From Escherichia coli 042 (lineage in GTDB: Bacteria > Pseudomonadota > Gammaproteobacteria > Enterobacterales > Enterobacteriaceae), in the NCBI RefSeq assembly GCF_000027125.1, contig NC_017626.1: a stretch of 64,000 nucleotides of DNA; one strand, given 5' to 3'. The notes under the pieces were generated by a model. It was not told the DNA's origin. It saw nothing but the letters and a program-made list of their open reading frames with translations, and searched no databases. Positions 2,466 to 29,324 of the stretch are shown here, in pieces. Every line of letters begins with the position of its first letter. Within the stretch, counting starts at the first letter, position 1. The position numbers and the translations under genes are program-made.

Positions 2466-2706
2466 TAAGAATTTCTTTACTGACAGGGTGAGCAGGGCGC
2501 TTTTATCCTGTCAGTTCGTTTTACTCACTTCATCCGGTGTATATACCCTTCTCGACAGTTCTTTAACGCCACTATACCCCTCACAGAGCGCTTTTACAGT
2601 GACGTTGACTTGTGACCTGTAAAGTACAATATCGCTGTGTGTAGGCGTTATACATCGCCGTAAATATGATGAAGGCAAATGCTGTCGGTTTATGGGAAAG
2701 TTGCTT

Positions 2707-24795: not shown

Positions 24796-24999
24796 TTACG
24801 GCGCTGTTTTTAATCCTGCCGGGATTTCGTTATTGTCCATGTGAATAACTTTATCGACCGGATAACAGTTGCCGGGAATTTTCTGTTCCGCTGCGGCAGC
24901 CATGCATTCTTTCATTGAGTTGTACATGCCGGTGATTGCATCAAGCGACTCACCAGTATTGAGATGTACAGTCAGAATGAGTACGAATAATGTGTTCAT
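24796..24999 (-). CDS. hypothetical small protein with hydrophobic N-terminus (67 aa)
   Basis: ATG preceded by GGAGAG; ATGA-type stop/start overlap with upstream ORF. Confidence 0.55.
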   Translation of the reverse strand: MNTLFVLILTVHLNTGESLDAITGMYNSMKECMAAAAEQKIPGNCYPVDKVIHMDNNEIPAGLKTAP

Positions 25000-25184
25000 C
25001 GCCACTCTCCGAAAATACCGAGTTTAAGAAGGGCAATTCTGGAGAGTATGGAATTGTCATTCAGCAGGTAGGGTTCATATTTTCTCATATTGATTGCATC
25101 CTCGGTGAAATCCCTGTTACTGAGCAGAACACCAATATTAAAGCACCCGTCAGACGTATTAACGTTTGGTAGTGACGTTTCCAT
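24996..25184 (-). CDS. hypothetical protein (62 aa)
   Basis: ORF with GAGGA Shine-Dalgarno, translationally coupled to the next gene. Confidence 0.5.
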   Translation of the reverse strand: METSLPNVNTSDGCFNIGVLLSNRDFTEDAINMRKYEPYLLNDNSILSRIALLKLGIFGEWR

Positions 25185-25194
25185 TATCGCGTCC

Positions 25195-25752
25195 TCAACA
25201 ATGAATTTTTAGCAATTGCTCCACAGTCATATTTTTAATTGCGCTCCGGTTTACAAGAGTCCATCCTTGTTTCTCCAGATAAAACCGGAAGGTATCCAGG
25301 GTGCAGACCATTGCGCCGTCAGGAACGGTTTCAGTGAATTTGATATTGCCGTGTTCGTCGAGACGGATAACCAGGGTGCGTCCGTCCCCGTGAATCATTT
25401 TGTCGGGAGACGGGGCGTTATTCTGGCGCAGTTCTGCTTCCATGCGGTCGAACTCAGCAATGTATGCCTCTTTAAATGCAGCGGCTTTTTTGCCAGTGAA
25501 GCCCATCACCAGGAAAACGAAGCCGTTTTTGGTGATTTGGTACATTGGGAGTTTGCGCCCGGTTGAGTCGGTGTATTCGCTTGACACAAAATTGTGCTCA
25601 GTGAATTTTGCTGAACAGTCCAGATTGCGAATTTTATCCAACACTCGTTCGTGGCGTTTGCCAAAGAACTCGGCGATCGCAACAGACGTAGTGACAGCGC
25701 GACCATTTTCGATGGTTACGTCAGGGTGAGAAAGGGTAAGGATAGTAGCCAT
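25195..25752 (-). CDS. rha: Rha-family phage regulatory protein (185 aa; internal ATG of listed 284-aa ORF)
   Basis: N-terminus TSVAIAEFFGKRHERVLDKIRNL...YQITKNGFVFLVMGFTGKKAAAFKEAYIAEFDRME typical of Rha domain; GGAGG 8 nt upstream of ATG at 25752. Confidence 0.8.
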   Translation of the reverse strand: MATILTLSHPDVTIENGRAVTTSVAIAEFFGKRHERVLDKIRNLDCSAKFTEHNFVSSEYTDSTGRKLPMYQITKNGFVFLVMGFTGKKAAAFKEAYIAEFDRMEAELRQNNAPSPDKMIHGDGRTLVIRLDEHGNIKFTETVPDGAMVCTLDTFRFYLEKQGWTLVNRSAIKNMTVEQLLKIHC

Positions 25753-25921
25753 GATGGCAGCCTCCGCGATGAATTTGATTAACTCACCACCGAGGTTTTC
25801 CACGACCATAAGGGTGGTGAGACGTACAGGGGTGGAAATACCGGTCATCACGGAACCCGGCCAGCCTTGCGGCTGCCCTGCACGCCCCACCATAATGCGA
25901 ATGTGGCTGTGCTTAACGCAT

Positions 25922-25946
25922 AAAAAAACCGCCTGAGCGCGGTTAT
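25922..25946 (-). terminator. intrinsic terminator on minus strand upstream of rha (tL-like)
   Basis: hairpin aaccgc gctcag gcggtt followed by T7 on minus strand. Confidence 0.5.
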
Positions 25947-26621
25947 GCGCCGTGAATGATTTCGGGTTTCCACGCCCGGCACCCGTTTTATGAGGTGCAG
26001 GTGCACTATAATTCCACCCGTTCTGGTTTTCAATAGCTACATTCAACATTTTCTCTACCTTTCATCACCGAAGTGAACTTTGTTGATGCGGTGCCTGGTG
26101 CCTCCAGGTGACGTTAACCAGTTAACAATTAACGTCGGATACAGAGCATTCCCGTTACGCCCGTAAAAGACCGCTTGTTTTAACTGTTCCGCGTGCGCTG
26201 AGCCGCATTCACCGCATCACAAAATTCACTTTAAAAAGGGCGGCAGAGCAGTCACGGAGTAGAACTGATACCGCCAAAAGTCACCAGAAAATTGATAACA
26301 GAGGGCGTTGCAGCGGAGTTGTCACTTAAGCGTATGGTCAACCTGACAACCCGGTGTCCTCAGCGGGGAAGGAATAACCCCGCCATACTTACCGCCGCGC
26401 CATTTCGCGGATTGCCACAACCGGAAGCGCACGGTCGAACTAAATTTAACGACACCGTACAGAGAGACCAATTTCGCCGTGCGCTTTCGCGTTATGCCCT
26501 GACTTTTCAGGGACATATCCTTTCAGTAAACTGTCAGTGCCGGATGCTCACCCGTGTCCGGCGCACGCACTCCACCTGACCCGTGGAGAACTCCTTAATT
26601 ACCAACCCTCAGGAGGGTGAA

Positions 26622-26900
26622 ATGGATAAAAAGCAAATTGAGGCCCTGCAATCTATTATTGAAAAACAAGATGAAGCTATCAGGATTCTTTCATATCGCA
26701 CTGATATGATACTAAATATGCTTTCTGCATTAACGGCTGCGCTTGGTGGTACAAAAACAAACGTATACCGCGAAGTTGTTATTCAACAGATAGATAAATT
26801 TGAAAAAACCATACCAGGTATTAATGCTCATCTTGCAGAACAAGAGAAAGACCATGCTCTTATGGCAATTTCTTCAGTAGCTCTCCCGAAAGTTGAGTAG
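26622..26900 (+). CDS. hypothetical coiled-coil protein (92 aa), opposite orientation to the leftward operon
   Basis: ATG with AGGAGG Shine-Dalgarno; AT-rich. Confidence 0.55.
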   Translation: MDKKQIEALQSIIEKQDEAIRILSYRTDMILNMLSALTAALGGTKTNVYREVVIQQIDKFEKTIPGINAHLAEQEKDHALMAISSVALPKVE

Positions 26901-27261
26901 TTTTAATTGTTGTTTTGAAATAATCACTGCTTTCACATTTGAGTGATTTCATGGCAATCCAAATGCGGGCCACTGTGCCTGCATTTGGTTCCAGTTGCTG
27001 TAGACGTTTTGCGTCTTCCAAAAGTAAGGCGATAATGTGTTTCAGCTTCTCATCATTTGCTTGATTCTTGTTTTCAGGCGAATTCTGTCCGCCGAATAGG
27101 CGCTTCTCTTCATACAGACCTATAAAGGCACGACGCACGTTACCGGATATAGTATCGATGGTTTCCTTTTCTACAGTACTCAGGTCAAGAGTCGCCAGTT
27201 GAGAGCGAACCACATTCGCTGCCATTTCCTGGAATGGCATTGGTAAATCTTTAAATTCCAT
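26860..27261 (-). CDS. hypothetical protein (133 aa)
   Basis: ORF with GAGG Shine-Dalgarno; 3' end overlaps the convergent 92-aa gene by 41 nt. Confidence 0.55.
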   Translation of the reverse strand: MEFKDLPMPFQEMAANVVRSQLATLDLSTVEKETIDTISGNVRRAFIGLYEEKRLFGGQNSPENKNQANDEKLKHIIALLLEDAKRLQQLEPNAGTVARIWIAMKSLKCESSDYFKTTIKTTQLSGELLKKLP

Positions 27262-27283
27262 TATTAGCCTCGTTGGTTAGCTA

Positions 27284-27502
27284 TTAACGTGGGTATGTAA
27301 CCATTCTGGCAATGCTTAATGCCGCTGCTTTTTCCAGCCTGGTGATATCCTGCTCCAGAGCGGACAGATTTTCAGCCTGCTTAGTCCTGGCTTCATTGGC
27401 CCATTTCAGATCCTGCACTGCATTAATTTTCTGGCGCATCCACTCATAAAGTTCATCATCGGTATAGTCTGGCGCGATGATGACGGGTTCTCGTTTCTGC
27501 AT
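27284..27502 (-). CDS. hypothetical early protein (72 aa), at the position of kil in Rac-type prophages
   Basis: ORF with GAGGA Shine-Dalgarno. Confidence 0.5.
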   Translation of the reverse strand: MQKREPVIIAPDYTDDELYEWMRQKINAVQDLKWANEARTKQAENLSALEQDITRLEKAAALSIARMVTYPR

Positions 27503-27661: not shown

Positions 27662-27817
27662 TCACTCACCTGAGTTTCTTTCCAGCCAGCGACGGGCACC
27701 ATTTTCGGTTTTAAACGTTTTGCTTTTGGTATACGTCATCGCGGTGAATGTGCCGTCCTGGTTGGGAAACACGCCGTACACCAGAGATTCGTTGTTGCCA
27801 AGCTCGATAGTATCCAT
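27662..27817 (-). CDS. small protein (51 aa), YdaF-like by size and position
   Basis: manual translation MDTIELGNNESLVYGVFPNQDG...; first gene of the leftward operon. Confidence 0.45.
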   Translation of the reverse strand: MDTIELGNNESLVYGVFPNQDGTFTAMTYTKSKTFKTENGARRWLERNSGE

Positions 27818-28070: not shown

Positions 28071-28532
28071 CTACTGGTTACGTTTCTTTAGTGCCAGCAT
28101 GTTCTCGAAGGCTTCCTCGTAGAGCTTGTTTAGTCCACGTAGCTGGTTAAGGAGTTTGGCTTTTTCTGACGCAGGTAGAATCTCGAAGAGGTTAAGTAAC
28201 TCTGCCTGTTCTTCATTGACCAGCCTCCATCCTTTGCCTGAAAAGTTATCATCATAAGTATCTGATGATCTTACATAATTCATTAAGTCTTTAAGGTCTT
28301 CTCGAATGTCCTCTGGTTTTACCTTTAACAGAGCCGCAAATTTTAGCGCAGCGTCGGTATTTACCGGTATCTTGCCGTTCAGATACTGGCTAACGGTGCC
28401 TTGAGATTCGAATCCCAACAACTCAGCCGCCAGCTCTTGAGTCAGCTTCAGCTCTTTTTTTCTTGCATTCCATGCGGCTTTTAAATTCTTGCTCGCTTCT
28501 GGAGTTGCAATCACTTCGCGTGTTTTTTTCAT
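28071..28532 (-). CDS. racR: prophage repressor, XRE-type HTH (153 aa), RacR-like
   Basis: HTH LTQELAAELLGFESQGTVSQYLNGK; divergent from a cro-like gene; Rac-like gene order. Confidence 0.75.
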   Translation of the reverse strand: MKKTREVIATPEASKNLKAAWNARKKELKLTQELAAELLGFESQGTVSQYLNGKIPVNTDAALKFAALLKVKPEDIREDLKDLMNYVRSSDTYDDNFSGKGWRLVNEEQAELLNLFEILPASEKAKLLNQLRGLNKLYEEAFENMLALKKRNQ

Positions 28533-28639
28533 ACATAGAGTTTATTTGTTTTACCAATATTATCAAAGATAGTCTGGCTATTGATCTTTAAAATTAGCGG
28601 GGCTAATATTTGCTCGAGGCATAACGTAGAAGGTTGGCT
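28533..28639. promoter_or_regulatory. divergent repressor/cro promoter-operator region
   Basis: AT-rich 107-bp intergenic region with imperfect inverted repeat atcaaagat-N12-atctttaaa between divergent HTH genes. Confidence 0.45.
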
Positions 28640-28915
28640 ATGAACTTAAGAGACTATTTAAAAGAGAAACATATCACCCAGCTACAGTTTGGGAAGCTAA
28701 CGGGTTTATCTCAGGTGCATGTAAGTCGAGTGCTGGGGGGCTATGAAAGATTCAGCCCTGAAAAAGCATTACGTGTTGCTGAAGTAACGAATTTCGAGGT
28801 TACACCTCATGAACTCCGGCCTGATATTTACCCGAATCCAACCGACGGCTTACCTGTTGGATTCAAGGCTAACACACCAAATGCATCGGAGTTGATTCAT
28901 GAAAATCAGGCATGA
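28640..28915 (+). CDS. ydaS: Cro-like HTH protein, YdaS-like (91 aa)
   Basis: HTH LQFGKLTGLSQVHVSRVL; GAAGG Shine-Dalgarno; first gene of the rightward operon. Confidence 0.7.
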   Translation: MNLRDYLKEKHITQLQFGKLTGLSQVHVSRVLGGYERFSPEKALRVAEVTNFEVTPHELRPDIYPNPTDGLPVGFKANTPNASELIHENQA

Positions 28916-29324
28916 GCACATCCGCATGGCGATGAATGCCTGGGCGCATCCGGACGGTGAAAAAGTTCCGGCAGCTGAAATAACCCGGGCTTATTTTGAG
29001 CTTGGTATGACGTTCCCGGAATTATATGACGACAGCCATCCGGAAGCCCTGGCTCGCAATACCCAGAAAATTTTCCGCTGGGTGGAGAAAGACACTCCTG
29101 ATGCGGTTAAAAAAATTCAGGCGTTGTTACCAGCGATCGAAAAAGCAATGCCGCCTCTGCTGGTGGCCCGAATGCGCAGCCACAGTTCAGCTTATTTTCG
29201 GGAGCTGGTGGAGACGCGGGAACGACTGGTGAGAGACGCTGATGATTTTGTCGCAGTGGCGATCGCTGGTTTCAACCAGATGAATCGTGGTGGCCCTGCA
29301 GGAAATATTGTGGCTGTGCATTGA
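28899..29324 (+). CDS. ydaT: YdaT-like protein (141 aa; Rac prophage YdaT family)
   Basis: MKIRHEHIRMAMNAWAHPDGEKVPAAEIT... recalled as matching K-12 YdaT; overlaps ydaS-like stop. Confidence 0.75.
   Translation: MKIRHEHIRMAMNAWAHPDGEKVPAAEITRAYFELGMTFPELYDDSHPEALARNTQKIFRWVEKDTPDAVKKIQALLPAIEKAMPPLLVARMRSHSSAYFRELVETRERLVRDADDFVAVAIAGFNQMNRGGPAGNIVAVH

Follow-up and report, generated by a model that had tools for sequence, protein, structure and literature searches.

A 64,000-nucleotide (nt) stretch of Escherichia coli 042 (NCBI RefSeq assembly GCF_000027125.1, contig NC_017626.1), the whole of which is called the window here, contains a Qin/dicBF-type lambdoid prophage. Within the early-left operon of this prophage lies a pair of small convergent genes, with ydfC on one side and the small RNA (sRNA) DicF on the other. 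The rightward gene (26622–26900, plus strand; ATG 26622, stop 26900) encodes a 92-amino-acid (aa) protein of PHROG 18692, a family of unknown function, while the leftward gene (26860–27261, minus strand; ATG 27261, stop 26860) encodes a 133-aa protein of PHROG 1363 and is a member of the early-left (dicBF-type) operon. The rightward gene is preceded by the Shine-Dalgarno sequence (SD) AGGAGG at 26611–26616, five bases 5' of its ATG, and the leftward gene by the ribosome-binding site GAGG (CCTC on the plus strand, 27268–27271). The two coding regions share a 3' stretch of 41 nt (26860–26900, both strands). These coordinates agree with an initial annotation of this DNA, which had described the convergent pair, its ribosome-binding sites and the overlap. 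The AT-richness remarked on there was also confirmed: the guanine-plus-cytosine (GC) content is 0.37 for the 92-aa gene, 0.43 for the 133-aa gene and 0.40 for the insert that carries both (see below), versus 0.54 in the left flank (26290–26607), 0.48 in the other flank and 0.50 in both the rha open reading frame (ORF) and the window. On a 99.9%-identical E. coli chromosome, RefSeq labels both products as hypothetical (WP_000358771.1 and WP_000394529.1).

Both ORFs are real genes under purifying selection. For the 92-aa ORF, 91 codons stay open in just 0.12% of composition-matched shuffles, and the ratio of nonsynonymous to synonymous substitution rates (dN/dS) between E. coli and Salmonella copies is 0.08–0.23 when computed in its own frame. 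A control across all six frames gave the lowest value for this one (0.15), followed by 0.32 for the next frame and about 1 or above for the others. The Salmonella homologues show 72–74% identity, with changes mainly at third codon positions. For the 133-aa gene, the non-overlapping part of the C-terminal module gave dN/dS values of 0.13 and 0.43 in the two computable comparisons (synonymous sites were saturated in the third), and the full-length gene gave 0.21 against an 88%-identical allele (L003). The same 41-nt overlap is found in Salmonella (L004 and L009) and in L010; it encodes residues 80–92 of the 92-aa protein, which form the final turns of helix 3 and a low-confidence end in the AlphaFold2 model, and residues 121–133 of the 133-aa protein, a low-confidence tail in the corresponding model. 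The terminator scan found no terminator-like sites between the genes (26622–27261). The initial annotation had made its reading depend on the conservation of both ORFs in homologous loci; coding is indeed conserved in both, whereas the linkage between them is broken, each being found without the other. As a separate observation, some copies of the 92-aa gene in IMG/VR (L179–L182) carry a frameshift near codon 20, with a tblastn identity of 94–97% and a match that is one nt longer. The 133-aa gene is intact there, indicating that the rightward gene can decay while the leftward gene is kept.

The two products were compared with known proteins and modelled. AlphaFold2 predicts a three-helix bundle for the 92-aa protein, with a predicted local distance difference test (pLDDT) score of 82 and a predicted template-modelling (pTM) score of 0.68, instead of the coiled coil that had been proposed. 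The family is narrow: 5.8 billion sequences contained 22 clusters of it, and an exhaustive phmmer scan gave only 15 matches. The three long phmmer matches look like chance, the one examined (P0146) being internally repetitive. Relatives with 40–45% identity occur in other mobile-element contexts: the homologue adjoins an S24-type repressor in L011 and an integrase in L012/L013, while in L010 a 45%-identical homologue, downstream of a Cox-like gene, converges on a helix-turn-helix (HTH) protein gene with a 41-nt overlap. The initial annotation had recognised no motif in either protein and had called for profile and structure searches. In the searches made here, neither protein had a significant match in Pfam, NCBIfam or PADLOC, nor had the proteins of the other cassettes described below, the best sub-threshold family match being RelB-like (E 0.011, 15.9 bits, cut-off 50). 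The PADLOC defence profiles gave only noise and generic HTH matches, and PDB sequence searches with single sequences and profiles found no relatives. PHROGs returned function-unknown families only, phrog_18692 being the sole match of the 92-aa protein.

By sequence comparison, the 133-aa protein is mosaic and consists of three parts, namely an N-terminal module that is conserved, a YmfJ-like middle module and a tail. The N-terminal module (MEFKDLP..., residues 1–53; 27103–27261, minus strand) is common to alleles with other C-termini. The YmfJ-like module (residues 69–108; 26938–27057, minus strand) is similar to about 40 N-terminal residues of K-12 YmfJ (LKHVIALLLEDAKRLQQIEPNAGTEARI), with 73% identity over 40 aa (BLASTP, E 5e-19); full-length similarity to YmfJ is absent, the BLASTP alignment covering residues 69–108 only, and both the N-terminal module and the tail differ from YmfJ. 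Across alleles, the middle module is of three unrelated kinds, and the tail of the leftward protein matches the type of rightward gene that it overlaps. The YmfJ-like module also occurs alone, as 67–75-aa proteins that begin at the module in Salmonella and some E. coli loci (L134, L004 and L009), and these stand-alone proteins keep the 41-nt overlap with the rightward gene. For the 133-aa protein, AlphaFold2 predicts, at low confidence (pLDDT 64.5), two helical modules, a disordered linker (48–65) and a disordered tail (121–133).

The two genes are present or absent as a unit, a cassette of 656 nt (26608–27263) bounded by ACCAACC and TTAGCCTCGTTGGTTAGC. In empty sites, which include that of K-12 Qin, ACCAACC runs directly into TTAGCTTCGTTGGTTAGC and ydfC immediately adjoins. 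In occupied sites, including that of the window, the insert lies exactly between ACCAACC and TTAGCTTCGTTGGTTAGC, so that it runs from the SD of the rightward gene to two bases past the start codon of the leftward gene. Of the 112 distinct IMG/VR sequences among the matches listed, about 54 have no insert. The pair thus combines presence or absence between the same flanking genes with a deviant base composition, as is expected of a moron.

This insertion site is widely distributed and holds many different cassettes. A 28-nt motif just 5' of the 92-aa gene (GCCGGATGCTCACCCGTGTCCGGCGCAC, 26539–26566) was found in more than 120 IMG/VR contigs, which is a lower bound, and the surrounding 142 nt occur, unannotated, in 3341 of 5426 complete E. 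coli genomes, in up to six copies each. Behind this one leader, we found at least nine different rightward ORFs of 57–97 aa, whose ATG follows the motif at a fixed distance of about 83 nt. In all arrangements but one, the rightward ORF converges on a leftward gene with a 3' overlap of 11, 23, 30, 32, 41 or 66 nt; the exception, L003, has a gap of about 80 nt between the two genes. Two further types of rightward ORF are under purifying selection (dN/dS 0.30 and 0.15), whereas the comparisons for the remaining types contain too few differences to judge. One cassette type (MSTENDEII...) encodes a remote homologue of the 92-aa protein (hhalign probability 96.5%). An extra type, seen in L127 and L131 (IMG/VR), has the same leader and an apparent TTG start (TTGAACACAATAAAAACC...) and faces a 63-aa stand-alone YmfJ-like gene; the ORF scan considered ATG starts only and hence missed it. 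Among the GTDB species-representative genomes, no relatives turned up. The accessible literature yielded no description of a hot spot that combines a portable leader with interchangeable convergent cassettes, and literature searches on both accessions and on ydfC antisense transcription gave no matches. Overall, the most fitting interpretation of the pair is that of an interchangeable two-gene insert, one of many that occupy a hot spot in a widespread E. coli prophage operon. Its arrangement resembles that of known prophage pairs in which each gene turns the other off.

The sequence in front of the rightward gene is a conserved structured leader (26538–26621, plus strand) that is kept upstream of unrelated rightward ORFs and in empty sites. 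It consists of hairpin H1 (26538–26547 paired with 26554–26563), hairpin H2 (26570–26575 paired with 26583–26588) and a helix in which an anti-SD (26591–26595, CUCCU) pairs with the SD (26611–26615), all on the plus strand. In the leader alignment, 93.9% of the cells are paired versus 39–49% in slid controls, and six pairs show changes on both sides, a result reached by 0 of 500 shuffles. All three helices contain compensatory changes, with the variants CTCCAC/GTGGAG, TTCCCRAC/GTYGGGAA and ACCACACG/CGTGTTGGT in H2 and CUCCU:AGGAG, CUCCAU:AUGGAG and CUCCAU:GUGGAG in the anti-SD:SD helix. The wobble pairs favour the plus strand, with 51 G.U versus 3 A.C cells, or 10 versus 3 once three constant columns are removed. 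A candidate promoter of the 92-aa gene precedes the leader (26504–26532, plus strand), with TTTTCA as the –35 element (26504–26509), a 17-nt spacer and TAAACT as the –10 element (26527–26532). A –10-like hexamer is located 4–9 nt 5' of H1 in 10 of the 12 independent upstream contexts, six of them with a TGn extended –10. With a box conserved in this position, the rightward RNA probably starts at the first hairpin.

No Rfam match for the leader and no second copy of it were found in the window. The possibility that the leader is the RNase III site producing the 190-nt DicF was rejected, as this site maps near 26427, outside the leader (PMC10448788 and coordinates). Pairing of DicF, C4 or IsrK with the rightward leader or the leftward start region was likewise rejected, because the duplex energies were no better than those of shuffles (z –0.5 to +1.5). 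In empty sites such as that of K-12 Qin (L185, about 2570–2700, reverse strand), the leader and its candidate –10 element are present and directed antisense into ydfC; even cassette-free loci may therefore produce an unannotated rightward antisense RNA that opposes the dicBF operon. Within ydfC lies a weak terminator-like hairpin with a T-run (27307–27333, plus strand). In addition, the hairpin TTTCACCACyTCmGGnCTyCGGTGGT is common to the regions 5' of sieB (L186, K-12 Rac, 2540–2600) and ymfI (L184, K-12 e14, 2920–2965), and the Rac region also has the linker GCGCyTTCGyGTTrTGCC, which precedes the leader of the window. This suggests a common junction sequence 5' of rightward genes in several lambdoid prophages.

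The surroundings of the pair confirm its earlier placement inside a leftward early operon. Reading leftward on the minus strand, a cI/DicA-like repressor gene (28071–28532) is followed by ydfA (27662–27817), ydfB (from 27532), ydfC (27284–27502; the next gene upstream of the pair in the operon), the pair itself, DicF (26238–26289; Rfam RF00039, 71.5 bits with a gathering score of 48, E 1.4e-14), which lies downstream on the same leftward transcript, and a complete dicB (24996–25184). The pair is located at the start of the long untranslated region (UTR) between ydfC and dicF. In K-12, a single dicBp transcript covers ydfA, this long UTR, dicF and dicB (PMC5069750, PMC10448788), and no internal promoter was found in the ydfA–dicF transcript (PMC10448788). 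Leftward transcripts must therefore cross the 92-aa gene.

Two K-12 prophages offer analogues of this arrangement. As in the window, a small plus-strand gene of e14 (ymfI) converges on a minus-strand gene (ymfJ) after a cI-like repressor, with an overlap of 63 nt; YmfJ is homologous to residues 69–108 of the 133-aa protein, and the rightward gene of one alternative cassette is weakly similar to YmfI (E 3e-8, below the family cut-off). However, YmfI is unrelated to the 92-aa protein, YmfJ is without the MEFKDLP N-terminal module, e14 has another leader, and no DicF is annotated in the e14 stretch examined. YmfI and YmfJ are themselves uncharacterised. Late in the SOS response, ymfJ shows strong induction while ymfI changes little, and the YmfJ protein has been detected (PMC11002266). 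Rac resembles the window in its series of repressor, DUF1391 gene (ydaF/ydfA-like), rightward gene, sRNA (KilS versus DicF) and division inhibitor (kilR versus dicB), and its sieB occupies the same position and orientation in the early-left operon as the 92-aa gene and also converges on the DUF1391 gene ydaF with an overlap, though one of only 4 nt and behind a different leader. SieB is a larger membrane protein, and sieB is an abortive-infection gene expressed in lysogens; Ranade and Poteete reportedly found in 1993 that P22 sieB is controlled by an antisense RNA. In contrast, the 92-aa protein has no long hydrophobic stretch in its sequence, and we found it similar to SieB neither in sequence (PHROGs, Pfam and NCBIfam) nor in fold.

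Both ymfI–ymfJ and sieB–ydaF are on an RNA-seq list of convergent excludons in MG1655 (PMC12288877). The pair in the window has the layout of an excludon, in which genes on opposite strands have transcription units that must overlap: it is convergent, its coding regions overlap, and without a terminator between the genes each transcript would run antisense through the other. For the K-12 analogues, overlapping transcripts and reciprocal expression have been seen. The antisense interference proposed in the initial annotation is thus a reasonable expectation, given the lack of a terminator-like site between the genes and the analogy with these two pairs. We regard the arrangement as a prophage accessory gene in excludon layout with an early gene, which is a known type and not a new kind of system.

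Taken together, we favour, with a probability of roughly 55%, the reading that the pair is a mobile two-gene cassette at a recombination hot spot, and that its 92-aa gene is an autonomous accessory gene, expressed in the lysogen and silenced on induction by the early-left transcript. In the lysogen, the repressor would silence the leftward operon, and the 92-aa gene would be transcribed from its own weak promoter. This gene would be a moron lying antisense in the operon, behind a portable unit made up of a weak or extended –10 element, two hairpins and an SD partly masked by the anti-SD; the 5' hairpins may stabilise the rightward mRNA, and the anti-SD helix may limit its translation. Rightward transcription would also proceed antisense through the 133-aa gene and into ydfCBA, and it may reduce leaky expression from the toxic operon. 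After release from the cI/DicA-like repressor, the 133-aa gene would share a transcript with ydfABC, DicF and dicB. Because the strong leftward transcript must cross the 92-aa gene to reach DicF and dicB, it should switch that gene off, which could proceed through polymerase collision and double-stranded RNA. Such silencing would meet a need of the prophage, which presumably has to turn the 92-aa gene off for its own lytic growth. Since the gene matches sieB of Rac and ymfI of e14 in position, its product most likely serves superinfection exclusion, defence or another lysogen-benefit function, as judged from these analogues. The exclusion role suggested in the initial annotation is plausible in this respect, through the positional analogy with Rac sieB only. 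The 41-nt overlap itself probably reflects tight packing.

Several points weigh against this favoured reading. The promoter candidate of the window has 8 of 12 consensus matches, which is below the threshold of the scan, and it was not called; nor did the scan find a plus-strand terminator before 27307. Without a terminator of its own, the 92-aa gene is not a textbook moron. The leader also exists in empty sites and within the leftward UTR and may thus serve the leftward transcript instead. The likeness to sieB is an analogy of position only, and the 92-aa protein has no homology to exclusion or defence proteins. The anatomy, the coding nature of both ORFs, the cassette polymorphism, the conserved and covarying leader and the YmfJ homology are shown by the sequences, whereas we infer that the promoter is active, that the two genes are expressed in a mutually exclusive way and what the biological role is.

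Among the other explanations, a rightward ORF that is no gene at all, with the region serving only as an antisense RNA or as the leftward gene's 3' UTR, is highly improbable. In favour of this explanation are the ORF's lack of family annotations, its antisense position inside an operon and the occurrence of the leader without any ORF in empty sites. Against this stand the dN/dS values, lowest in its own frame among six, the rarity of shuffles that stay open, a strong SD with correct spacing, the homologues with 40–45% identity in other contexts and the confident AlphaFold2 model. More serious, though still rather unlikely in our estimation, is the explanation that the two genes are incidental neighbours, that is, unrelated accessory genes packed by mosaic recombination, whose ORFs run to the first antisense stop without meaningful coupling. 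The overlaps observed here and in K-12 (4, 11, 23, 30, 32, 41, 63 and 66 nt) fit our own estimate for random read-through in AT-rich antisense sequence, part of the overlap encodes the low-confidence ends of both proteins, and the modules are shuffled freely. However, the convergent, overlapping layout is kept in nearly all cassette types, and the 41-nt overlap is conserved between E. coli and Salmonella as well as in a 45%-identical homologue. Antisense exposure is moreover unavoidable, with leftward transcripts crossing the rightward gene on their way to DicF and dicB, and the K-12 analogues behave as excludons in RNA-seq (PMC12288877).

It is also unlikely that the genes encode a cognate protein pair (a toxin-antitoxin or an effector with its neutraliser), in which the leftward tail binds the rightward protein and the cassettes are specificity alleles. 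The cassette does move as a unit bounded by both start sites, and a type-specific leftward tail accompanies each type of rightward gene, as with the MTQEEKV genes, which come with a ...SELEK(H/N)NIKPT... extension whatever the middle module; the combination of a conserved N-terminal module and a variable C-terminus also recalls polymorphic toxins. Physical overlap of the genes makes the co-variation of tail and rightward gene inevitable, however, and disorder is predicted for the overlapped tail of the leftward protein. Moreover, the partners can be separated. In L003, a leftward gene of the same type (type A, 88% identical) faces an unrelated, non-overlapping 57-aa rightward gene, a combination that may be common because its protein cluster (P0086) has 220 member sequences. 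The rightward gene lacks the leftward partner in L007/L008, where its own tail differs from residue 74, and an intact partner in L011 and L012, and in L010 it faces an unrelated HTH protein that resembles the leftward protein of the window only in the overlapped tail. Since each gene can occur without the other, they are unlikely to form an obligate toxin-antitoxin pair; they do not share an operon, and no toxin-antitoxin or defence families were matched. The toxin-antidote idea of the initial annotation was therefore dropped, given the broken linkage (L003, L007, L010, L011 and L012) and the lack of resemblance to toxin or antitoxin families. The known classes do not fit either. Type I systems such as bsrG/SR4 and txpA/RatA of Bacillus prophages are likewise prophage-borne, convergent and 3'-overlapping, but they combine a short hydrophobic toxin peptide with a non-coding RNA, whereas both partners here are conserved coding genes with helical models and no long hydrophobic stretch. 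A type II system, which would have co-oriented genes in a single operon, does not fit genes on opposite strands in which no toxin or antitoxin domains were recognised.

Beyond the favoured reading of a lysogen-expressed accessory gene, a more far-reaching version is conceivable, which we consider doubtful. In this version, the ydfC–dicF UTR, which about 60% of complete E. coli genomes contain, would be a hot spot not described before, at which at least nine cassettes, switched on in lysogeny and off on induction, are exchanged. The small rightward protein of each would act in exclusion or abortive infection, with the portable structured leader driving its expression, and the convergent YmfJ-type early gene would provide self-immunity, by antisense silencing in the first place and possibly also by a cognate protein tail, making up a new class of defence and self-immunity. 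If the favoured reading is true, prophages can park lysogen-benefit genes antisense in a toxic early operon, with automatic shut-off on induction. The hot spot, with its portable structured leader in most E. coli genomes and at least nine convergent cassettes, is a more interesting by-product than the pair itself: a very common site with many alternative small genes behind one leader is a compact place to seek new exclusion or defence genes, and it is suited to studying antisense transcription versus DicF/DicB production. YmfJ and YmfI, two uncharacterised proteins of K-12, also gain a first genomic context from this site.

Several further features were observed around the pair. Beyond the repressor, rightward-pointing YdaS/YdaT genes occupy 28634–29324 (plus strand). 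To the left of DicF, an IsrK/C4/Rha module (about 25195–26049, minus strand) contains a 284-aa 'Rha family' ORF (25195–26049, minus strand), and C4 antisense RNA (81.9 bits) and IsrK (67.7 bits) matches lie at 25810–25998 (minus strand), within the first ~100 codons of this ORF. The Rha-like profile phrog_518 covers residues 111–212 only, while the top match, phrog_995, covers 1–284. Because the RNAs lie inside the N-terminal part and phrog_518 is limited to residues 111–212, the annotated start may be too far upstream, and the N-terminal stretch may represent RNA genes rather than coding sequence. RefSeq also marks a partial dicB pseudogene at about 26084–26167 (minus strand), immediately left of DicF, with the complete dicB farther left and the IsrK/C4/Rha module between the two; it looks as if this module was inserted into the dicF–dicB interval, duplicating the 5' end of dicB. 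A below-threshold STnc100 match (35.6 bits) was seen at 26079–26226. At other loci, a ParE/Phd toxin-antitoxin pair (L007, 2032–2594, minus strand) and a hok/sok-type sok RNA (L103, 9609–9775, plus strand) were each found within a few kb of the cassette site, indicating that this neighbourhood collects accessory modules.

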